Shown: positions 1-13,433 of the stretch, in pieces | Position numbering within the stretch: position 1 is the stretch's first letter | Layout: each line of letters opens with the position of its first letter | Source: a virus | Lineage: Duplodnaviria > Heunggongvirae > Uroviricota > Caudoviricetes | IMG/VR virus record: IMGVR_UViG_2698536313_000011 | DNA length: 13,451 nucleotides | Direction: 5' to 3' (one strand) | Translations under genes and position numbers: made by a program | Notes under the pieces: model-generated | Told to the model about the DNA's origin: nothing | The model's input: only the letters and a program-made list of their open reading frames with translations | Database searches by the model: none

Positions 1-2
1 GT

Positions 3-80
3 GAATTCACCATGACGCAGTCCGCACCGCTGATGGTGCTGCCGGATCCGGATGAGTTTGTGGTGGTACAGGTGAAATAA
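3..80 (+). CDS. E: Major capsid protein, C-terminal end (5'-truncated by window edge)
   Basis: Open frame running to TAA at 78-80 translates ...EFTMTQSAPLMVLPDPDEFVVVQVK. It sits directly upstream of FI, as E does in lambda. Identification is by position plus my recollection of the lambda E C-terminus, not a search. Confidence 0.5.
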   Translation, partial: EFTMTQSAPLMVLPDPDEFVVVQVK

Positions 81-131
81 TCCGTGAGCGGGGGCGAAAT
101 GCCCCCGTGTCTTTTTTCACAGGAGGCTGAG

Positions 132-515
132 ATGGCAACAAAAGAAGAAAATCTGAATCGTCTTCGTCAACTGGCTGGCCTGCTGGGGCGCGAGGCGGAT
201 ATGTCGGGGAGTGCTGCGGATATTGCTCAACGTGTGTCTGAGTGGGAAGAGGAGCTTGCTGTTTCCCCGGAGGGCATTATGCACTCTGATGAGAGCGGGG
301 CTGATCAAAATCACACAGACGATGGTGAGCAGTTGAACAACACGGATGCTCCGGATGATGTTAAAGCCGTCCGGGTACGGAAGTGCCTGCAAGTAATGGG
401 GTATTGCCCGGAGACAGGTCGTCCCGTTGAGCTGGCGTTACGGGGTATGCGTGTTCTGGTGCCATCATCACTGGCAACGGCCATGATACAGCACGGAACG
501 GCTGAATATGCGTGA
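132..515 (+). CDS. FI: DNA-packaging protein FI
   Basis: ATG at 132 preceded by AGGAGG (121-126). Translation MATKEENLNRLRQLAG... resembles lambda gpFI in sequence, size (127 aa here vs about 132) and position between E and FII. The ORF track start at 84 is a GTG with no SD and was not used. Confidence 0.85.
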   Translation: MATKEENLNRLRQLAGLLGREADMSGSAADIAQRVSEWEEELAVSPEGIMHSDESGADQNHTDDGEQLNNTDAPDDVKAVRVRKCLQVMGYCPETGRPVELALRGMRVLVPSSLATAMIQHGTAEYA

Positions 516-861
516 TTTTCAGAATGCCTTTGATGCTGCCCTCGCCGGGGTAGACAGTACGATCGTTGAAGTGATGGGGCTCTGTGCGCAGTTCACCTCG
601 GGGGCACAGTGTGGCAGCGAAGTTCAGGGGGTTTTTGATGATCCGGAGTCGCTGGGGTTTGCCGGTGGCGGGGTCCGTATTGAAGGAAGCAGCCCGTCAT
701 TATTTGTGCGGACGGATACGGTTCGTGCCGTGCGGCGTGGTGACACGCTGACCATTAATGGTGAGATATTCTGGGTGGATCGTGTTTCTCCGGATGACGG
801 GGGCAGCTGTTATCTCTGGCTCAACCGTGGTCAACCACCCGCAGTTAACCGGCGACGATAA
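508..861 (+). CDS. FII: Head-tail joining protein FII (head completion)
   Basis: 117 aa, same length as lambda gpFII. Translation MRDFQNAFDAA...RVSPDDGGSCYLWLNRGQPPAVNRRR closely matches the lambda FII sequence as I recall it. Start overlaps the FI stop by 8 nt (ATGCGTGA). Confidence 0.9.
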   Translation: MRDFQNAFDAALAGVDSTIVEVMGLCAQFTSGAQCGSEVQGVFDDPESLGFAGGGVRIEGSSPSLFVRTDTVRAVRRGDTLTINGEIFWVDRVSPDDGGSCYLWLNRGQPPAVNRRR

Positions 862-876
862 ACGCAGGGTGAAATT

Positions 877-1410
877 ATGGCGATAAAAGGGCTTGATCAG
901 GCGATTGACAATCTGAGCCGGGTTCGTAAAAACGCCATTCCGGCGGCTTCAGCAATGGCCATTAACCGCGTGGCCACAACGGCGATTAATCAGTCTTCAT
1001 CACAGGTTGCCCGGGAGACAAAGGTTCGCCGGAAACTGGTTAAGGAACGGTCCAGACTGAAACGGGCGACGGTCAGAAATCCGAATGCCAGAATTATCGT
1101 TAACCGCGGTGATCTCCCTGTGATTAAGCTGGGGATCAGGATGCCGGGGCGTCGCCCGAACAGCATACTTAAAGCCGGTCAGCATCGGTATCAGCGGGCA
1201 TTTATTCAGCGATTAAAAAATGGTCGCTGGCATGTCATGCAGCGTGTGGCCGGGAAAAACCGTTACCCCATTGATGTGGTGAAAATCCCGATGGCGGCCC
1301 CACTGAAACAGGCATTTGATGAGAATGTTGACCGTATCCGGCGTGAACGCCTGCCTAAAGAACTGGCATCCGCGCTGAAACAACAACTGAGGATTGCAAT
1401 AAAACGATGA
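877..1410 (+). CDS. Z: Tail completion protein Z
   Basis: 177 aa; the N- and C-terminal blocks (MAIKGL.., ..FIQ.LKNGRWHVMQRVAGKNRYPIDVVKIPMA..RIRRERLPKEL..) match lambda gpZ as recalled. Position between FII and U. Confidence 0.9.
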   Translation: MAIKGLDQAIDNLSRVRKNAIPAASAMAINRVATTAINQSSSQVARETKVRRKLVKERSRLKRATVRNPNARIIVNRGDLPVIKLGIRMPGRRPNSILKAGQHRYQRAFIQRLKNGRWHVMQRVAGKNRYPIDVVKIPMAAPLKQAFDENVDRIRRERLPKELASALKQQLRIAIKR

Positions 1411-1802
1411 AACACACTGACATTCGTGCCGCAGTGCTGGATGCACTCGAGCAGCATGAACACGGGGCGACGCTGTTTGATGGTCGCCCCGTTGTTTTTG
1501 ACGAAGAGGATTTTCCTGCGATCGCGGTTTATCTGACGGATGCAGAGTATACCGGTGAAGAGCTGGATGCAGATACCTGGCGGGCCACGCTGCATATTGA
1601 GGTGTTTTTACCGGCACAGGTACCGGATTCAGAGCTTGATCAGTGGATGGAAAGCCGGATTTACCCGGCGATGACCGCGATCCCGGCACTGGCAGGACTG
1701 ATTACCACGATGGTTACGCAGGGCTATGAGTATCGTCGTGATGACGATATGGCGTTATGGAGTTCTGCAGATCTGACTTATTCCATTACATACGAGATGT
1801 GA
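1407..1802 (+). CDS. U: Tail terminator protein U
   Basis: 131 aa, same length as lambda gpU. MKHT.. start and [25 protein letters not shown] motif match lambda gpU as recalled. ATGA overlap with the Z stop (1407-1410). Confidence 0.92.
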
Positions 1803-1809
1803 GGACGAT

Positions 1810-2562
1810 ATGGCAACACCAAATCCCCTTGAGCCGGTAAAAGGTGCCGGTACCACTCTGTGGGTTTACAACGGCAAGGGTGATGCTTATGCAAACCCGT
1901 TGTCAGACGATGACTGGCAGCGACTGGCTAAGGTGAAGGATCTGACGCCGGGCGAGATGACGGCAGAATCCTACGATGATAACTACCTGGATGATGAAGA
2001 CGCGGACTGGACCGCGACCGGGCAGGGGCAGAAATCTGCAGGTGATACCAGTTTTACGCTGGCCTGGAAACCGGGAGAGGAAGGCCAGAAAGGGCTTATA
2101 GGCTGGTTTGAAATCGGCGATGTCCGGGCCTATAAAATCCGTTTTCCGAATGGCACGGTGGATGTGTTTCGTGGCTGGGTCAGCAGTATCGGTAAGGCCG
2201 TGACGGCGAAAGAAGTGATCACCCGCACGGTGAAAGTCACTAACGTGGGTAAACCTTCTGTAGCGGAAGAACGCAGCAAAATTACGCCGGTCAGTGCGAT
2301 TAAGGTGACGCCGACATCCGGTACGGTGGCAAAAGGGAAAACAACCACCCTGACGGTTTCTTTTGAGCCGGAAAGTGCAACAGACAAGACGTTCAGAGCG
2401 GTTTCCGCCGATCCGTCGAAAGCCACCATTAGTGTGAAAGATATGACAATTACGGTAAACGGCGTGGCGACAGGTAAGGTGCAGATCCCTGTGGTGAGCG
2501 GAAATGGTCAGTTCGCCGCAGTGGCTGAAGTCACCGTTACTGAAGCGGGCGCTGCAGGGTAA
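1810..2562 (+). CDS. V: Major tail tube protein V with C-terminal Ig-like (Big_2-type) domain
   Basis: 250 aa (lambda gpV is 246). GAGGA ribosome-binding site upstream. The C-terminal segment (about residues 158-245, nt about 2281-2544) is Thr/Val/Ser-rich beta-strand sequence typical of the gpV Ig-like decoration domain. Confidence 0.92.
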
Positions 2563-2575
2563 ACGGAGGTCATAC

Positions 2576-3007
2576 ATGTTTCTGAAAACAGAACAATTTG
2601 AATATAACGGTGTGTCTGTCACGCTTTCCGAATTGTCTGCGCTGCAGCGTATCGAGCATCTTGCCCTCCTGAAACGGCGTGCAGAACAGGCAGAATCCAG
2701 CGGCAACCTGCAGGTAAGCGTGGAAGATCTCGTCAGAACCGGCGCGTTTCTGGTGGCGATGTCCCTGTGGCATAACCATCCACAGAAAACGCAGTCACCG
2801 TCAATGAATGAGGCCGTGATGAAGATAGAGCAGGAAGTGCTCACCACCTGGCCTGCCGATGCCATTGCCCGGGCGGAAGACGTGGTGTTGTGCCTGTCCG
2901 GGATGATCGAAGCTGTTCGTCCGGATACTGATATTACTGAAGTGGCGAAAAATAACACGCTGACTGATGATGATTTTTCTGCGGGAAAGTCTTCGACGGC
3001 GAGCTGA
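2576..3007 (+). CDS. G: Tail assembly chaperone G
   Basis: ATG at 2576 preceded by GGAGG (2566-2570). MFLKTEQFEYNGVSVTLSELSALQRIEHLALLKRRAEQAES.. matches lambda gpG as recalled. The ORF track start at 2504 lies inside V and was not used. Confidence 0.9.
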   Translation: MFLKTEQFEYNGVSVTLSELSALQRIEHLALLKRRAEQAESSGNLQVSVEDLVRTGAFLVAMSLWHNHPQKTQSPSMNEAVMKIEQEVLTTWPADAIARAEDVVLCLSGMIEAVRPDTDITEVAKNNTLTDDDFSAGKSSTAS

Positions 3008-3447
3008 ACTTTGCCCTCAGACTGGCGCGTGAGATGGGGAGACCCGACTGGCGCGCCATGCTTGCCGGGATGACATCCACCGAATATGCCGACTGGCACC
3101 GTTTTTACCGCACGCATTATTTTCAGGATACCCAGCTGGATATGCATTTTTCCGGGCTGACGTACGCCGTACTCAGCCTGTTTTTTTGCGATCCGGATAT
3201 GCATCCCTCTGATTTCAGTCTGCTTGTCCCCCGGCATGAGGAAGAGCAGGTGGAGAGGCCGGATGAGGACAAAATGCTGATGCAGAAAGCGGCAGGACTT
3301 GCCGGAGGCGTCCGGTTCGGTGGGGACGGAGGGCGCGATATTTTATCGTCTGCGGATGTGGCGGATGTCATGGTGGATGATGCCGCATTAATGATGGCTT
3401 CAGCGGGGATTCCGGGAGGTGTGAGATATGTCCCAGCCGGTTGGTGA
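2576..3447 (+). CDS. T: Tail assembly chaperone G-T fusion made by programmed -1 ribosomal frameshift
   Basis: Slippery heptamer G GGA AAG at 2983-2989 sits in the G frame 6 codons before the G stop. The -1 frame is open from there to TGA 3445-3447 and encodes ..LNFALRLAREMGRPDWRAMLAGMTSTEYADWHRFY.., which matches lambda gpT. Frames were checked by hand: G is in frame 2, T in frame 1. Confidence 0.8.
2983..2989 (+). other. Programmed -1 frameshift slippery site GGGAAAG (G to G-T)
   Basis: Heptamer is seen directly in the sequence in the correct phase (G|GGA|AAG in the G frame). It is identical to the lambda G-T slip site known from the literature. Confidence 0.8.
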
Positions 3448-6001
3448 TCTTGTTATTGACCTGAGTCTGGATGCGGTCCGTTTCGATGAGCAGATGAGCC
3501 GGGTAAGGCGTCATTTTTCAGGACTGGAGACTGACGCCAGAAAAACCGCCGGTGTCGTTGAGCAGAACCTGAGTCGTCAGGCGCTGGCTGCACAAAAAGC
3601 CGGGATTTCCGTCGGGCAGTATAAAGCGGCCATGCGAACCCTGCCCGCACAGTTTACGGATATCGCCACGCAGCTTGCCGGTGGTCAGAATCCCTGGCTG
3701 ATCCTGCTGCAACAGGGCGGTCAGGTGAAGGACTCCTTCGGCGGGATGATCCCCATGTTCAGGGGACTTGCCGGTGCGATCACCCTGCCGATGGTCGGGG
3801 TCACCTCGCTGGCGGTGGCGACAGGTGCGCTTGCGTACGCCTGGTACCTGGGGGATTCCACGCTTTCAGCGTTTAATAAAACCCTGGTTCTTTCCGGTAA
3901 TCAGTCCGGACTGACTGCCGATCGCATGCTGACGCTCTCCAGAGCCGGACAGGCCGCAGGGCTGACGTTTAACCAGGCGAGAGAGTCACTGGCAGCCCTG
4001 GTGAATGCCGGTGTGCGTGGTGGTGAACAGTTTGATGCCATCAACCAGAGTGTCGCGCGTTTTGCTTCTGCATCCGGTGTGGAGGTGGACAAGGTTGCAG
4101 AGGCTTTCGGAAAACTGACCACCGACCCGACGTCGGGGCTGATTGCGATGGCGCGCCAGTTCCGTAACGTGACGGCAGAGCAGATTGCGTATGTTGCGCA
4201 GCTGCAGCGTTCCGGTGATGAGGCCGGGGCCTTACAGGCGGCGAACGATATCGCCACGAAAGGCTTTGATGAGCAGACCCGTCGCCTGAAAGAAAACATG
4301 GGGACACTGGAGACCTGGGCGGATAAAACAGGGAAGGCGTTCAAATCGATGTGGGATGCCATTCTGGATATCGGTCGTCCTGAGTCCTCAGCGGATATGC
4401 TCGCCAGTGCACAGAAGGCATTTGATGAGGCGGATAAAAAATGGCAGTGGTACCAGAGCCGGAGCCAGCGCCGGGGAAAAACCGCCTCTTTCCGGGCCAA
4501 CCTTCAGGGCGCATGGAATGACCGGGAAAATGCCCGTCTGGGGCTGGCAGCGGCCACGCTGCAGTCGGATATGGAAAAAGCCGGTGAACTGGCCGCCAGG
4601 GACCGGGCCGAACGGGACGCATCACAGCTGAAGTATACCGAAGAGGCGCAGAAGGCTTACGAACGGCTGCAGACGCCGCTGGAGAAATATACCGCCCGTC
4701 AGGAAGAACTGAACAAGGCACTGAAGGACGGGAAAATCCTGCAGGCGGATTACAACACGCTGATGGCGTCGGCAAAAAAGGATTATGAATCGACGCTGAA
4801 AAAGCCGTCAGGTGTGAAGGTGTCTGCCGGTGAGCGCCAGGAAGACCGGGCGCATGCAGCCATGCTGGCGCTTGAAACCGAGCTCAGGACGCTGGAAAAA
4901 CACAGCGGTGTGAATGAGAAAATCAGCCAGCAGCGCCGGGATTTATGGGAAGCGGAAAATCAGTATGTGGTCCTGAAAGAGGCCGCCACGAAACGGCAGT
5001 TATCTGAGCAGGAAAAATCCCTGCTGGCTCATGAGAAAGAGACGCTGGAGTACAAACGCCAGCTGGCTGAGCTGGGAGACAAGATTGAACACCAGAAGCG
5101 GCTGAATGAGCTGGCACAGCAGGCGGCGCGGTTTGAACAGCAGCAGAGCGCGAAGCAGGCGGCAATCAGCGCAAAAGCCCGCGGCCTCACTGACCGTCAG
5201 GCGCAGCGGGAGTCGGAAGAGCAGCGCCTTCGTGAGGTGTACGGTGATAATCCGGCTGCGCTGGCGAAGGCCACATCTGCACTGAAGAACACCTGGTCTG
5301 CGGAGGAGCAGCTTCGTGGAAGCTGGATGGCCGGGATGAAGTCCGGCTGGGGCGAGTGGGCGGAAAGTGCGACGGACAGTTTTTCGCAGGTTAAAAACGC
5401 GGCCACGCAGACCTTTGACGGTATTGCACAGAATATGGCGGCGATGCTGACCGGCAGCGAACAGAACTGGCGTGGTTTCACCCGTTCTGTGCTGTCCATG
5501 CTGACAGAGATTTTTCTGAAGCAGGCGATGGTGGGGATAGTCGGGAGTATCGGCAGCGCCATTGGCGGTGCTTTCGGTGGTGGTGCGTCTGCCTCCACGG
5601 GGACGGCCATTCAGGCTGCGGCGGCGAACTTCCATTTCGCGACCGGGGGATTTACGGGGACGGGGGGGAAATATGAACCTGCGGGGATTGTTCATCGCGG
5701 GGAGTTTGTCTTCACGAAGGAGGCGACCAGCCGGATTGGCGTGGGAAATCTTTACCGGCTGATGCGCGGCTATGCCACCGGCGGTTATGTCGGTGGCACC
5801 GGAAGTCCGGCGCAAATGCGGCGTTCAGAGGGTATCAGATTTGAGCAGAACAACAACGTGGTGATTCAGAACGACGGTACGAATGGTCTGCCAGGTCCAC
5901 AGATGCTGAAGGCAGTGTATGACATGGCCCGCAAGGGTGCCCGTGATGAAATTCAGGCACAGATGCGCGATGGTGGTCTGTTCTCCGGAGGTGGACGATG
6001 A
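3428..6001 (+). CDS. H: Tail tape measure protein H
   Basis: 857 aa (lambda gpH is 853). GGAGG ribosome-binding site. The N-terminus and long internal blocks (..KYTEEAQKAYERLQTPLEKYTARQEELNKALKDGKILQADYNTLMA.., C-terminal ..FHFATGGFTGTGGKYEPAGIVHRGEFVFTKEATSRIGVGNLYRLMRGYATGGYVG..) match lambda gpH as recalled. Start overlaps the G-T stop. Confidence 0.95.
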   Translation: MSQPVGDLVIDLSLDAVRFDEQMSRVRRHFSGLETDARKTAGVVEQNLSRQALAAQKAGISVGQYKAAMRTLPAQFTDIATQLAGGQNPWLILLQQGGQVKDSFGGMIPMFRGLAGAITLPMVGVTSLAVATGALAYAWYLGDSTLSAFNKTLVLSGNQSGLTADRMLTLSRAGQAAGLTFNQARESLAALVNAGVRGGEQFDAINQSVARFASASGVEVDKVAEAFGKLTTDPTSGLIAMARQFRNVTAEQIAYVAQLQRSGDEAGALQAANDIATKGFDEQTRRLKENMGTLETWADKTGKAFKSMWDAILDIGRPESSADMLASAQKAFDEADKKWQWYQSRSQRRGKTASFRANLQGAWNDRENARLGLAAATLQSDMEKAGELAARDRAERDASQLKYTEEAQKAYERLQTPLEKYTARQEELNKALKDGKILQADYNTLMASAKKDYESTLKKPSGVKVSAGERQEDRAHAAMLALETELRTLEKHSGVNEKISQQRRDLWEAENQYVVLKEAATKRQLSEQEKSLLAHEKETLEYKRQLAELGDKIEHQKRLNELAQQAARFEQQQSAKQAAISAKARGLTDRQAQRESEEQRLREVYGDNPAALAKATSALKNTWSAEEQLRGSWMAGMKSGWGEWAESATDSFSQVKNAATQTFDGIAQNMAAMLTGSEQNWRGFTRSVLSMLTEIFLKQAMVGIVGSIGSAIGGAFGGGASASTGTAIQAAAANFHFATGGFTGTGGKYEPAGIVHRGEFVFTKEATSRIGVGNLYRLMRGYATGGYVGGTGSPAQMRRSEGIRFEQNNNVVIQNDGTNGLPGPQMLKAVYDMARKGARDEIQAQMRDGGLFSGGGR

Positions 6002-6327
6002 AGACCTTCCACTGGAAAGTGAAACCCGGTATGGATGTGGCTTCAGCCCCTTCCGTCAGGAAAGTGCGCTTTGGTGATGGCTATTCCCAGCGAGCGCCTG
6101 CCGGGCTGAATGCCGACCTGAAAACGTACAGCGTGACGCTTTCTGTTCCCCGTTGGGAGGCCACGGCGCTTGAGTCGTTTCTGGCTGAGCACGGGGGCTG
6201 GAAATCCTTTCTGTGGACGCCGCCTTATGAGTGGCGGCAGATAAAGGTGACCTGCGCAAAATGGTCGTCGCGGGTCAGTATGCTGCGTGTTGAGTTCAGC
6301 GCAGAGTTTGAACAGGTGGTGAACTGA
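5998..6327 (+). CDS. M: Tail tip protein M
   Basis: 109 aa, same length as lambda gpM. ATGA overlap with the H stop. Position between H and L. Confidence 0.9.
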   Translation: MKTFHWKVKPGMDVASAPSVRKVRFGDGYSQRAPAGLNADLKTYSVTLSVPRWEATALESFLAEHGGWKSFLWTPPYEWRQIKVTCAKWSSRVSMLRVEFSAEFEQVVN

Positions 6328-7025
6328 TGCAGGATATCCGGCAGGAAACACTGAATGAATGCACCCGTGCGGAGCAGTCGGCCAGCGTGGTGCTCTGGGA
6401 AATCGATCTGACAGAGGTCGGTGGAGAACGTTATTTTTTCTGTAATGAGCAGAACGAAAAAGGTGAGCCGGTCACCTGGCAGGGGCGACAGTATCAGCCG
6501 TATCCCATTCAGGGGAGTGGTTTTGAACTGAATGGCAAAGGCACCAGTACGCGCCCCACGCTGACGGTTTCTAACCTGTACGGTATGGTCACCGGTATGG
6601 TGGAAGATATGCAGAGTCTGGTCGGCGGAACGGTGGTCCGGCGTAAGGTTTACGCCCGTTTTCTGGATGCGGTGAACTTCGTCAACGGAAACAGTGACGC
6701 CGATCCGGAGCAGGAGGTGATCAGCCGCTGGCGCATCGAGCAGTGCAGCGAACTGAGCGCGGTGAGTGCCTCCTTTGTACTGTCCACGCCGACGGAAACG
6801 GATGGCGCTGTTTTTCCGGGACGTATCATGCTGGCCAACACCTGCACCTGGACCTATCGCGGTGATGAGTGCGGTTATCACGGTCCGGCAGTCGCGGATG
6901 AATATGACCAGCCGACGTCCGATATCACGAAGGATAAATGCAGCAAATGCCTGAGCGGCTGTAAGTTTCGCAATAACGTCGGCAACTTTGGCGGCTTCCT
7001 TTCCATTAACAAACTTTCGCAGTAA
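6327..7025 (+). CDS. L: Tail tip protein L (Cys-rich C-terminus, putative Fe-S site)
   Basis: 232 aa, same length as lambda gpL. 1-nt overlap with the M stop (TGATG), as in lambda. C-terminal Cys cluster (..CTWTYRGDECGYHG..KDKCSKCLSGCKF..). Confidence 0.9.
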   Translation: MQDIRQETLNECTRAEQSASVVLWEIDLTEVGGERYFFCNEQNEKGEPVTWQGRQYQPYPIQGSGFELNGKGTSTRPTLTVSNLYGMVTGMVEDMQSLVGGTVVRRKVYARFLDAVNFVNGNSDADPEQEVISRWRIEQCSELSAVSASFVLSTPTETDGAVFPGRIMLANTCTWTYRGDECGYHGPAVADEYDQPTSDITKDKCSKCLSGCKFRNNVGNFGGFLSINKLSQ

Positions 7026-7029
7026 TCCC

Positions 7030-7773
7030 ATGACAGAGACAGAATCAGCGATTCTGGCGCACGCCCGGCGATGTGCGCCAGCGGAGTCGTGCGGCTTCGT
7101 GGTGAGAGCGCCGGAGGGGGAAAGATATTTTCCCTGCGTGAATATTTCCGGTGAGCCGGAGGATTATTTCCGGATGGCTCCGGAGGACTGGCTGCAGGCA
7201 GAGATGCAGGGTGAGATTGTGGCACTGGTCCACAGTCATCCCGGTGGTCTGCCCTGGCTGAGTGAGGCTGACCGGCGGCTGCAGGTGCAGAGTGATTTGC
7301 CGTGGTGGCTGGTCTGCCGGGGGGCGATTCACAAGTTCCGCTGTGTGCCGCATCTCACCGGGCGGCGCTTTGAGCACGGGGTGACGGACTGTTACACGCT
7401 GTTCCGGGATGCTTATCATCTGGCGGGGATTGAGATGCCGGATTTTCATCGCGGGGATGACTGGTGGCGTCACGGTCAGAATCTCTATCTGGATAATCTG
7501 GAGGCCACAGGGCTGTATCAGGTGCCGTTGTCAGCGGCGCAGCCGGGCGATGTGCTGCTGTGCTGTTTTGGTTCATCGGTGCCGAATCATGCCGCCATTT
7601 ACTGTGGTGACAGCGAGCTGCTGCACCATATTCCTGAACAACTGAGCAAACGAGAGAGGTACACCGACAAATGGCAGCGACGCACACACTCCCTCTGGCG
7701 TCACCAGGCATGGCACGCATCTGCCTTTACGGGGATTTACAACGATTTGGTCGCCGCATCGACCTTCGTGTGA
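7030..7773 (+). CDS. K: Tail tip assembly protein K (MPN/JAMM plus NlpC/P60 domains)
   Basis: ORF from ATG 7030 (MTETESAILAHARRC..), 247 aa. JAMM motif HSHPGGLPWLSEAD (H-x-H-x7-S-x2-D) at nt 7231-7272. NlpC/P60-like Cys (..GVTDCYTLF..) and His (..VPNHAAIY..) downstream. The classical lambda 199-aa start corresponds to ATG 7174 here. The ORF track start at 6988 overlaps L and was not used. Confidence 0.85.
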   Translation: MTETESAILAHARRCAPAESCGFVVRAPEGERYFPCVNISGEPEDYFRMAPEDWLQAEMQGEIVALVHSHPGGLPWLSEADRRLQVQSDLPWWLVCRGAIHKFRCVPHLTGRRFEHGVTDCYTLFRDAYHLAGIEMPDFHRGDDWWRHGQNLYLDNLEATGLYQVPLSAAQPGDVLLCCFGSSVPNHAAIYCGDSELLHHIPEQLSKRERYTDKWQRRTHSLWRHQAWHASAFTGIYNDLVAASTFV

Positions 7774-8312
7774 AAACGGGGGCCGAAGCCATCCGGGCGC
7801 TGGCCACACAGCTCCCGGCGTTTCGCCAGAAACTGAATGAGGGCTGGTATCAGGTGCGCATTGCCGGGCGTGATGCAGGCGAAAACGAATTATCTGCCCG
7901 TCTTAATGAGCCGCTGGCAAATGGTGCCGTGATCCACATCGTACCGCGTCTGGCGGGTGCCAAAAGTGGTGGTGTTTTTCAGGCAGTGCTGGGTGCGGCG
8001 CTGATTGCTACGGCAATCTGGATGCCAGGAATCAGTATCGCTTTCAGTAACATTCTCTTTTCTATGGGGGCAGCGATGACGCTTGGTGGTGTCGCACAGA
8101 TGCTGGCCCCTAAACCCAAAACTCCACGTACACAGACAACGGATAACGGCAAACAGAACACCTATTTCTCCTCACTGGATAACATGGTTGCCCAGGGCAA
8201 TGTCCTGCCTGTTCTGTACGGTGAAATGCGCGTGGGGTCACGTGTGGCATCTCAGGAGATCAGCACGGCAGATGAAGGGGATGGTGGTCAGGTTGTGGTA
8301 ATTGGGCGGTAA
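7671..8312 (+). CDS. I: Tail tip assembly protein I
   Basis: 213 aa (lambda gpI is 223). Overlaps the 3' end of K by 103 nt in a different frame, exactly the K/I overlap length in lambda. Hydrophobic central segment (..AVLGAALIATAIWMPGISIAFSNILFSMGAAMTLGGVAQMLAP..). Confidence 0.85.
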   Translation: MAATHTLPLASPGMARICLYGDLQRFGRRIDLRVKTGAEAIRALATQLPAFRQKLNEGWYQVRIAGRDAGENELSARLNEPLANGAVIHIVPRLAGAKSGGVFQAVLGAALIATAIWMPGISIAFSNILFSMGAAMTLGGVAQMLAPKPKTPRTQTTDNGKQNTYFSSLDNMVAQGNVLPVLYGEMRVGSRVASQEISTADEGDGGQVVVIGR

Positions 8313-8384
8313 TATTATTTACTCATGTTCTAACTGATTTAATATTTATATCGAACACTGATAATTATTCTATTGGTTAGCTAT

Positions 8385-8723
8385 ATGAACAAAACGATTT
8401 TATTCTGCACGATTATTGCCTTAACAGGATGTAAATCTTTGGATTACGTAAAATCCGGAAAACCTGTAATGGAAGGTAATTCATTAAAAAATATTGATGA
8501 ATTGTCAGGCTGCATATCCAGACAATGGGCTGGTAATGGAACACCTATAACATCCCTTCCTATTGAGAATGAGGTAAGCCTTTTAGTTCCACAGGCTATG
8601 GGGGGATATGATGTTGTGCTTGATATCAAAAAAGCAGGAAATGGCAGTAGTTTTACTCTTTATGAACGTGTACCAGCATTAACGCCAAAAATTTTTGCTG
8701 ATAGTGTTAATGCATGTAAATAA
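8385..8723 (+). CDS. Putative secreted lipoprotein of unknown function (moron inserted between I and J)
   Basis: 112-aa ORF from ATG 8385. N-terminus MNKTILFCTIIALTGC has a hydrophobic signal core plus lipobox L-T-G-C. Residue after the Cys is Lys, not Asp, which suggests outer-membrane sorting. Sits in an AT-rich island between GC-rich I and J. Lambda has only about 60 bp between I and J; here the gap is 477 bp. No obvious SD. I do not recognise the protein. Confidence 0.6.
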   Translation: MNKTILFCTIIALTGCKSLDYVKSGKPVMEGNSLKNIDELSGCISRQWAGNGTPITSLPIENEVSLLVPQAMGGYDVVLDIKKAGNGSSFTLYERVPALTPKIFADSVNACK

Positions 8724-8747
8724 TAGTTAATCCTGCCGTAACTCATG

Positions 8748-8775
8748 AGCCGCCTTTTGGGCGGCTTTGTTGTTT
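8748..8775 (+). terminator. Putative rho-independent terminator downstream of the lipoprotein gene
   Basis: Inverted repeat AGCCGCC (8748-8754) / GGCGGCT (8760-8766) with a 5-nt loop, followed by the T-rich run TTGTTGTTT (8767-8775). Confidence 0.5.
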
Positions 8776-8789
8776 ATGGAGTGTGAGGA

Positions 8790-10445
<1,656 letters not shown>

Positions 10446-10463
<18 letters not shown>

Positions 10464-10765
10464 AGGACCGCCATAATGCCGTTGAGGTGAACTGGATTGA
10501 CCCGGATAACGGCTGGGAGACGGCGACAGAGCTTGTTGAAGATACGCAGGCCATTGCCCGTTACGGTCGTAACGTCACGAAGATGGATGCCTTTGGCTGT
10601 ACCAGCCGGGGGCAGGCACACCGCGCCGGGCTGTGGCTGATTAAAACGGAGCTGCTGGAAACGCAGACCGTGGACTTCAGCGTGGGTGCCGAAGGGCTTC
10701 GCCATGTACCGGGCGATGTCATTGAAATCTGTGATGATGACTATGCCGGTATCAGCATCGGCGGG
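10446..10765 (+). repeat. Direct repeat copy 2 (320 bp of J coding sequence)
   Basis: See copy 1. Copy 2 continues seamlessly into the downstream J sequence (..[21 protein letters not shown]..). Confidence 0.9.
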
Positions 10766-12766
10766 CGCGTGCTGGCGGTGAACAGCCAGACGCGGACACT
10801 GACGCTCGACCGTGAAATCACGCTGCCATCCTCCGGCACCACGCTGATAAGCCTGGTTGACGGACAGGGGAATCCGGTCAGCGTGGAGGTCCAGTCCGTC
10901 ACCGACGGCGTGAAGGTGAAAGTGAGCCGTGTTCCTGACGGCGTTGCCGAATACAGCGTGTGGGGGCTGAAGCTGCCGACGCTGCGCCAGCGCCTGTTCC
11001 GCTGCGTGAGTATCCGTGAGAACGATGGCGGCACGTATGCCATCACCGCCGTGCAGCATGTACCGGAAAAAGAAGCCATCGTGGATAACGGGGCGCACTT
11101 TGACGGCGACCAGAGCGGCACGGTGAATGGTGTCACGCCGCCAGCGGTGCAGCACCTGACTGCCGAAGTCACCGCAGACAGCGGGGAGTATCAGGTACTG
11201 GCCCGCTGGGACACGCCGAAGGTGGTGAAGGGCGTGAGCTTCCTGCTTCGCCTGACCGTGACAGCGGACGATGGCAGTGAGCGGCTGGTCAGCACGGCCC
11301 GGACGACGGAAACCACATACCGCTTCAGGCAGCTGGCGCTGGGGCGTTACATGTTGACGGTCCGGGCGGTAAATGCGTGGGGACAGCTGGGCGATCCGGC
11401 GTCGGTATCGTTCCGGATTGCCGCACCGGCAGCGCCGTCGCGGATTGAGCTGACGCCGGGCTATTTTCAGATAACCGCCACGCCGCATCTTGCCGTTTAT
11501 GACCCGACGGTACAGTTTGAGTTCTGGTTTTCGGAAAAGCGGATTACCGATATCAGGAAGGTTGAAACCACAGCGCGCTATCTTGGCACGGGGCTGTACT
11601 GGATAGCCGCCAGTATCAATATCAAACCGGGCCATGATTATTATTTTTACGTTCGCAGTGTGAACACCGTTGGCAAATCGGCATTCGTGGAGGCTGTTGG
11701 TCAGCCGAGTGATGATGCATCCGGTTATCTGGATTTTTTCAAAGGCGAGATAGGGAAAACCCATCTGGCTCAGGAGCTGTGGACGCAGATTGATAACGGT
11801 CAGCTTGCGCCTGACCTGGCTGAAATCAGGACGTCCATTAAGGATGTCAGCAATGAAATCACGCAGACCGTCAATAAGAAACTGGAAGACCAGAGTGCGG
11901 CAATTCAGCAGATACAGAAGGTTCAGGTTGATACAAATAATAATCTGAACAGCATGTGGGCTGTGAAGCTGCAACAGATGAAGGACGGACGCCTTTATAT
12001 TGCGGGTATCGGTGCCGGTATTGAGAATACGCCAGCAGGAATGCAGAGTCAGGTGCTGCTGGCGGCAGACAGGATTGCGATGATTAATCCTGCGAATGGC
12101 AACACAAAGCCGATGTTTGTTGGTCAGGGCGATCAGATATTCATGAACGACGTGTTCCTGAAACGCCTGACGGCTCCCACCATTACCAGCGGCGGTAATC
12201 CTCCGGCATTTTCCCTGACACCGGACGGGCGGCTGACGGCGAAAAATGCCGATATTAGCGGTAACGTGAATGCGAACTCCGGGACGCTCAACAACGTCAC
12301 GATTAACGAGAACTGTCGGGTTCTGGGAAAACTGTCCGCCAACCAGATTGAAGGCGATCTCGTTAAAACAGTGGGCAAAGCTTTCCCCCGGGACTCCCGT
12401 GCACCGGAGCGGTGGCCATCAGGGACCATTACCGTCAGGGTTTATGACGATCAGCCGTTTGACCGGCAGATTGTTATTCCGGCGGTGGCATTCAGTGGCG
12501 CTAAGCATGAGAGAGAGCATACTGATATTTACTCCTCATGCCGTCTGATAGTGCGGAAAAACGGTGCTGAAATTTATAACCGTACCGCGCTGGATAATAC
12601 GCTGATTTACAGTGGCGTTATTGATATGCCTGCCGGTCACGGTCACATGACGCTGGAGTTTTCGGTATCAGCATGGCTGGTGAATAACTGGTATCCCACA
12701 GCAAGTATCAGCGATTTGCTGGTTGTGGTGATGAAGAAAGCCACCGCAGGCATCAGTATCAGCTGA
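10487..12766 (+). CDS. J: Host specificity protein J, C-terminal portion (includes receptor-binding region)
   Basis: As-written ORF starts at GTG 10487 (759 aa). J-homologous sequence in this frame begins at about 10448 inside repeat copy 2. Long blocks match lambda gpJ (..[44 protein letters not shown].., ..[30 protein letters not shown]..). Removing 497 bp (one repeat copy plus the G-tract) restores a single J ORF of about 1159 aa. Confidence 0.85.
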
Positions 12767-12833: not shown

Positions 12834-13433
12834 ATGCGTAAATTATGTGCTGTTATTCTGTCCGCAGTAGTCTGGCTGGTTGCCGCTGGTACGCCAGCGA
12901 GCGCAGCAGAGCATCAGTCCACACTAAGCGCCGGGTATCTTCAGACCCATACTGATATGCCAGGCAGCGATGACCTGAAGGGCATTAACGTGAAATACCG
13001 TTATGAATTTACGGACACGCTGGGGCTGGTGACGTCATTCAGCTATGCAGGAGACAGGAATCGCCAGCTTACCCGTTACAGCGATACCCGCTGGCATGAA
13101 GATTCCGTTCGTAACCGCTGGTTCAGCGTAATGGCGGGGCCGTCTGTGCGCGTGAATGAATGGTTCAGCGCGTATGCGATGGCGGGCGTGGCTTACAGCC
13201 GTGTGTCGACTTTCTCCGGGGATTATCTCCGCGTAACTGACAACAAGGGGAAAACGCACGACGTGCTGACCGGAAGTGATGACGGTCGCCACAGCAACAC
13301 GTCTCTGGCGTGGGGGGCTGGCGTGCAGTTTAACCCGACCGAATCCGTGGCCATTGATATTGCTTATGAAGGTTCCGGCAGTGGTGACTGGCGCACTGAC
13401 GGCTTCATCGTGGGTGTCGGCTATAAATTCTGA
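12834..13433 (+). CDS. lom: Outer membrane protein Lom (Ail/Lom/OmpX family beta-barrel)
   Basis: 199 aa (lambda Lom is 206). Signal peptide [26 protein letters not shown]. Internal ..[11 protein letters not shown].. and C-terminal ..[24 protein letters not shown] match lambda Lom as recalled, ending in the beta-barrel terminal aromatic residue. GAGAGG ribosome-binding site at 12824-12829. Position immediately after J. Confidence 0.9.

Follow-up and report, generated by a model that had tools for sequence, protein, structure and literature searches.

Which receptor is recognised by a lambda-like phage when the body of its J protein is that of lambda and the tip is not? The question is raised by a stretch of 13,451 nucleotides (the window; IMG/VR record IMGVR_UViG_2698536313_000011), the 13.4-kb tail module of a lambda-like E. 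coli prophage comprising head-tail joining genes, V, G/T, H, M, L, K, I, J and lom. An earlier note, written from the sequence alone, had read the distal part of J as the mosaic signature of a receptor-specificity swap.

The J gene and the insertion that splits it

Outside two elements within J, the window matches a prophage of the E. coli TB354 chromosome (NZ_AP038814.1) at 99.96% identity. J follows K and I and precedes lom, as seen from the layout of open reading frames, Pfam matches and the TB354 annotation. The reading frame ending at position 12766, with its stop codon at 12764-12766, constitutes the 3' portion of a J gene of lambda type. In the window as given, J consists of two reading frames, 8790..10463 and 10487..12766, because a run of G and a 320-nt direct repeat are inserted into it (Table 1).

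The two copies of the repeat differ at one position (10193 A versus 10690 C), which is a synonymous change. A 500-nt interval over the G-run has a GC content of 0.73 and a GC skew of 0.50. In the TB354 chromosome the G-run is absent and the 320-nt segment is single-copy. We therefore regard the G-run and the repeat as artefactual, introduced by assembly or by sequencing. An exact-sequence look-up of the 557-aa reading frame bearing the insertion found no match in public assemblies. The insertion looks like an assembly join or base calls made without signal, perhaps at a repeat; a join at a repeat was considered because TB354 carries up to 6 J-like places. The earlier note did not mention this interruption, which lies upstream of the divergent region and, taken at face value, would give J the appearance of a pseudogene.

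The protein comparisons and profile tests of J were made with the reconstructed gene (8790..9948 joined to 10446..12766), which has 3480 nt and encodes 1159 aa; in TB354 an identical J of this length is annotated as gpJ (WP_053893783.1). The region 11700-12766 (1067 nt), which contains the divergent part, is 100% identical to TB354 DNA.

Table 1. Coordinates of the parts of J, the inserted elements and the genes on either side (positions in the window; aa numbering of the reconstructed J)
Feature	Position	Strand	Remarks
I	7671..8312		PF06805
J 5' part, aa 1-493, hub domains, lambda-like	8790..10268	+	PF24801, PF13550
G-run, ~177 nt	10269-10445		pure-G stretch first, then C every 12 nt (G11C repeats); read directly
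Repeat of J nt 1160-1479 (window 9949-10268), artefactual	10446-10765	+	direct repeat, 320 nt
J aa 494-820, rest of hub, FNIII/Ig, start of shaft region, lambda-like	10766..11746	+	PF24421 aa 610-714, PF24489 aa 716-818
J aa 821-900, divergent alpha-helical shaft region	11747..11986	+	breakpoint, 47% lambda identity
J aa 901-1007, beta-prism central straight fibre including conserved island	11987..12307	+	PF09327 aa 872-1000
J aa 1008-1159 and stop codon, '1A2' (OmpC)-type RBD	12308..12766	+	PF12421 aa 1029-1159
lom (Ail/Lom outer-membrane protein)	12834..13433	+	PF06316 full length, E = 3.4e-123

Domain architecture

Reconstructed J matches the NCBIfam profile lambda_TipJ (NF049904) with 2382.7 bits (cut-off 1950), its residues 1-1159 covering profile positions 1-1163 of 1163. 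The Pfam domains follow in the same order as in lambda J: PF24801, PF13550, PF24421, PF24489, PF09327 and PF12421, the last of them matched over positions 1-135 of 135 (E = 2.7e-37). The profile itself, with its 1163 positions, fits the long-shaft form of J (1159-1160 aa) and not lambda's 1132 aa. Together with a predicted receptor-binding domain (RBD) that superposes on solved tips (see below), these matches bear out the earlier view that the divergent protein had kept its architecture.

Comparison with lambda J

A global alignment of reconstructed J with lambda J (NC_001416, 15505..18903) gave the identities listed in the first row of Table 2. A maximum chi-square scan placed a breakpoint at aa 821 (window 11747), to the left of which J is 97.0% identical to lambda and to the right 54.0% (Fisher p = 2.8e-66). 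The earlier note had called the N-terminal and central parts close to lambda and had named as the start of divergence a segment that corresponds to aa 816-832; both statements agree with the alignment. Likewise, its statement that the last 150 or so residues are especially divergent holds true, aa 1008-1159 being only 43% identical as against 95-99% in aa 1-810, and thus the pairwise alignment it had proposed finds the C-terminal region far less conserved than the N-terminal part.

Divergence from lambda is not uniform. Two divergent blocks, aa 821-940 and 1001-1159, show mostly 15-55% identity per 20-residue window (single windows reach 70%), and between them lies a conserved island, aa 941-1000, where 17-20 of 20 residues per window are those of lambda. 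At the DNA level, identity to lambda J is 96% over 8759-10267 and 92.6% over 10446-11783, where similarity ends; it returns at 76% over 11953-12316, and the RBD-encoding DNA (12317-12766) has no similarity to lambda detectable by blastn.

The segment aa 811-900 contains 28 residues more than lambda, in two gaps of 21 and 7 aa. Its divergent part, aa 821-900, is called shaft here after the lambda domain names in PMC11101478. A stretch free of proline and glycine spans 58 aa in the shaft of J versus 44 aa in that of lambda, and we infer that the 28 additional residues lengthen the helix by four heptads. As a joint for recombination between fibre and RBD, the conserved island is the obvious place, and the fusion point used for engineered chimeras, lambda residue 964, falls within it.

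Table 2. Amino acid identity (%) of other J proteins to reconstructed J, by segment
J protein	1-400	401-810	811-900	901-1007	1008-1159
Lambda	99	95	47	78	43
h434	99	96	48	77	46
Lambda_ev203	98	97	97	94	68
BP-4795	79	66	59	70	66
VT1-Sakai	79	71	94	98	99
Stx2a_2409	80	66	57	77	99

Mosaicism among J proteins

Comparison with further J proteins (Table 2) shows that the similarity is distributed in blocks. Stx2a_2409 has the RBD alone in common with the window J, Lambda_ev203 has everything except the RBD, and VT1-Sakai has shaft, fibre and RBD, but not the hub. On the evidence of these alignments, J is made up of at least three independently assorting modules, namely hub with FNIII, shaft with fibre, and RBD. 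The window J combines a lambda-type hub, a long shaft and fibre, and an RBD common to VT1-Sakai and Stx2a phages.

This RBD is 98.7-99.3% protein-identical in VT1-Sakai (Sp15), PPompW prophages, Stx2a phages, JLK-2012 and TB354 gpJ. Unlike the tip, hub and FNIII of the Stx-phage J proteins are 66-80% identical to those of the window J, which are lambda-like at 95-99%. Lambda gpJ has the same domain order and RBD fold as the window J and is 97% identical to it over aa 1-820; its RBD is 43% identical, its shaft is 28 aa shorter and its receptor is LamB.

The host range known classically as h434 depends on OmpC. The J protein of phage 434 (Lambda h434 imm21, OM418627) resembles the window J in joining a lambda-like body (96-99%) to a swapped PF12421-type tip, but it has lambda's short shaft and its RBD, 46% identical to ours, represents a separate tip class. 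HK97, N15 and phi80, with which comparison had also been proposed, gave 30-34% identity in the hub; their J proteins have no detectable similarity to this RBD, so that they say nothing about the tip.

Fold of the receptor-binding domain

An AlphaFold2 monomer model was built for J aa 1000-1159 from a 17-sequence alignment, from which frameshifted or chimeric database fragments had been removed beforehand. It is an all-beta domain with a mean pLDDT of 79.6. The best PDB matches are A8 gpJ713, 9WCA and 9WCB (TM 0.76 and 0.75, 62% identity), and lambda gpJ, 8XCK in the closed state and 8XCJ bound to LamB (TM 0.79 and 0.77, 44% identity). Foldseek E-values across the four structures range from 8e-18 to 9e-16, which places the model within the gpJ tip fold. 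The structure prediction suggested by the earlier note thus indicates that the tip, as modelled, retains the fold of the lambda and A8 tips (TM 0.75-0.79).

It is only the insertions and deletions that fall in loops or at loop edges. Concentration of the divergence in loops was considered and rejected, identity in loops versus strands being 40% versus 45% in comparison with lambda and 60% versus 53% in comparison with A8.

Near-identity to an OmpC-dependent tip

In the work of Brödel et al. (Nature 2024; PMC11338833), lambda gpJ was joined at residue 964 to the C-terminal portions of gpJ variants that occur naturally in E. coli. Two of the chimeras, A8 and 1A2, were characterised, and the DNA of both tips is given in the supplement, where the machine-read text contains dropped and added bases and 8 of 174 columns of 1A2 are unreadable. 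No exact 14-15-nt string from the RBD DNA of the window occurs in this supplement, the 1A2 tip included, and the 1A2 tip DNA appears to have been recoded. Since no exact DNA strings are shared while the proteins are nearly identical, comparison was made at the protein level; plain tblastn broke at the frameshifts, and for both tips a frameshift-tolerant protein-to-DNA alignment was used.

From the motif KNADISG to the C-terminus (aa 986-1159, 174 aa), J equals the 1A2 tip in 159 of the 166 readable columns (95.8%) and without indels. Five of the seven mismatches lie in obviously corrupted codons, which leaves R1076K and S1157T as credible substitutions; both are present in the natural allele P0020. 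Judged from the readable codons, the J tip probably differs from 1A2 at 2 of 174 residues, that is, 172 of 174 are identical. As far as the OCR-noisy source allows, the J tip is nearly identical to 1A2. With 43% identity to lambda over aa 1008-1159, its RBD is not of the lambda class. For comparison, the lambda tip is 47% identical to that of 1A2.

The J tip is also distinct from, though related to, the A8 class. Over the whole tip the identity to A8 is 64%, and over the RBD 62-64%, with two loop indels, a 4-aa deletion and a 5-aa insertion. The gpJ of A8 (9WCA, closed; 9WCB, open, 'OmpC G17 from E. coli EDL933') shares fold and domain family with the window J and uses OmpC as receptor. Its OmpC range is broader than that of 1A2 and includes the K-12 OmpC.

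Delivery by 1A2 particles (PMC11338833) depends on OmpC. It reached 5.2% of cells in LamB+ MG1655 at an MOI of 50, where wild-type lambda reached 97.7%, 2% in cells deleted for lamB and ompC that carried K-12 OmpC, and 98.3-98.7% in K-12 expressing EDL933 OmpC at an MOI of ~230. Efficient delivery by at least one of A8 and 1A2 was obtained with 21 of 23 natural OmpC variants, and the segment after lambda residue 964 was enough for OmpC use in the chimeras (PMC11338833). Another use of the 1A2 tip is the anti-STEC vector EB003 (bioRxiv 10.1101/2025.02.28.640725).

In the supplement text of Extended Data Fig. 2 (PMC11338833), the panel C values (OmpC-EDL933) of 1A2 and A8 equal those of panel B (OmpC-MG1655), and for 1A2 panel C disagrees with Fig. 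1b as well as with Extended Data Fig. 1 and 8. The duplication probably arose when the source-data file was copied or parsed; the 1A2 figures quoted above are from panels other than this one.

Distribution of the tip

We searched 5426 complete E. coli genomes for the DNA of the RBD (12311-12766). At a coverage of at least 80%, it was found in 3350 of them (62%), and the median copy number in positive genomes was two. The lambda RBD DNA was found in 98 (1.8%), always at an identity of at least 99%, the top matches listed being laboratory or DE3 strains. The 1067-nt region is 95-97% DNA-identical in VT1-Sakai, PPompW prophages, PhiR55_1 and vB_EcoS-640R1. Matches in the protein database all belong to Escherichia or Shigella, except for one fragment labelled Pseudomonas aeruginosa.

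Neighbouring genes

The gene lom belongs to the same non-lambda block as the 3' end of J, with patchy DNA similarity (80-84%) to lambda lom. On the other side of J, where lambda has a gap of 60 nt between I and J, the window carries an inserted small reading frame (8385..8723, within 8373-8777) of 43% GC. Read from its ATG, it encodes 112 aa with the lipobox LTGC, and is followed by a hairpin and T-run at 8747-8777. The only match of this putative lipoprotein is phrog_914 (E = 1.3e-30), a family listed there with function unknown. No match was found in Pfam, NCBIfam or PDB, nor by tblastn in 50,697 phage records, and it shows no similarity to HK97 gp22 or phi80 morF. Its DNA occurs in 337 of the 5426 complete E. 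coli genomes. Inserts unrelated to it occupy this position in HK97 (the gp22/gp23 'moron') and in phi80 (morF). The lipoprotein gene may be a moron.

The tape-measure gene H is an intact reading frame of 857 aa in the window (3428-6001), and its TB354 counterpart (4727-7299 of the TB354 segment) is annotated as 'frameshifted'. The single gap in the alignment of the window with TB354 over 1-10268 is probably this difference, and the window is accordingly not derived from the TB354 assembly itself. Beyond lom (14299-22839 of the same segment), TB354 carries a side tail fibre gene, stf, split by an IS66-family element, and then type III effector genes (an NleB family gene, an EspO fragment and espK), a cargo layout typical of EHEC/EPEC lambdoid prophages. 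Because H is annotated as frameshifted and stf carries the IS66 element in TB354, the prophage may be defective.

Discussion

We consider it very probable that a lambda-type J, retained over its first 820 residues, has recombined with a longer shaft and fibre and a 1A2-type RBD, and that the resulting protein most probably binds OmpC and not LamB. J is a mosaic, it keeps its fold in the model, and its tip is nearly identical to that of 1A2. That native J uses OmpC in the way the lambda chimera does would follow by analogy with 1A2, an engineered protein with lambda's short shaft and lambda fibre, whereas the tip studied here sits on a natural long shaft. The swap of receptor specificity proposed in the earlier note is supported by the identity of at least 95.8% to an OmpC-dependent tip and by the assortment of modules.

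The region 11700-12766 encodes the distal third of J, the trimeric central tail fibre. By analogy with the solved lambda-LamB and A8-OmpC complexes, each RBD of the trimer would dock on one porin subunit. Docking would spread the bases of the RBDs, upon which the prism would twist, the shaft flip, the FNIII strings be released and the tail tube open. This succession is that described for lambda (PMC11101478), and we infer that J shares it.

Could the tip be diverged and still specific for LamB, its sequence changed by neutral or antigenic drift with the receptor unaltered? Fold and domain family are those of the lambda RBD, and both receptors are trimeric porins. However, the RBDs are only 43% identical and their DNA similarity is undetectable, and the nearly identical 1A2 tip delivers to LamB+ MG1655 at the low level quoted above, where wild-type lambda is almost fully efficient. 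We regard retained LamB specificity as extremely unlikely. It is unlikely, too, that the RBD binds some other outer-membrane component, or that residue differences or the longer native shaft give it a range of OmpC variants unlike that of 1A2. A8 and 1A2, ~64% identical, already accept different variants, and two to seven residues may differ between the J tip and 1A2; but R1076K and S1157T are conservative, the latter lies 3 residues from the C-terminus, and in the chimeras the part following residue 964 sufficed for OmpC use. The range of J would most probably comprise EDL933-like OmpC and many other natural variants, and not K-12 OmpC, with the caveat that the variant range can turn on few residues, as A8 and 1A2 already differ in it.

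The divergence might also be that of a dead gene in a decaying prophage, without current function. J is interrupted in the window, the TB354 copies of H and stf are flagged as damaged, and the J gene of VT1-Sakai is itself frameshifted. The interruption is nevertheless artefactual, TB354 J is intact with 1159 aa, and so is the tape-measure frame of the window. Moreover, the RBD is 99% protein-identical across phages whose other J modules are 57-80% identical (the 1067-nt query taken as a whole being 83.5% identical at the DNA level), which implies purifying selection on the RBD. Loss of function is thus a very improbable cause, and recombination with an OmpC-type tip is the reading we retain.

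Position and length are the basis of two further proposals, each of which we find distinctly doubtful. One is that the 28-residue longer shaft is an adaptive spacer and not a neutral variant; if so, the shaft would set the stand-off distance or the trigger threshold for porins shorter than LamB, or on O-antigen-bearing cells. The other is that the lipoprotein encoded upstream of J masks the receptor as a superinfection-exclusion factor, a role which is pure speculation.

The tip of J is an already known and very common receptor-binding module placed on a lambda-like body. As a discovery this matters little, being a textbook example of how phage receptor-binding proteins exchange modules, and tips of this type have already been put to use in gut gene delivery, where they redirect lambda particles from LamB to OmpC. 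Sequence alone is enough for annotation pipelines to label such J proteins 'OmpC-type (1A2-like)'. At the distal end of J, lambda is the outlier of its own family, and divergence from lambda is the normal state in E. coli.
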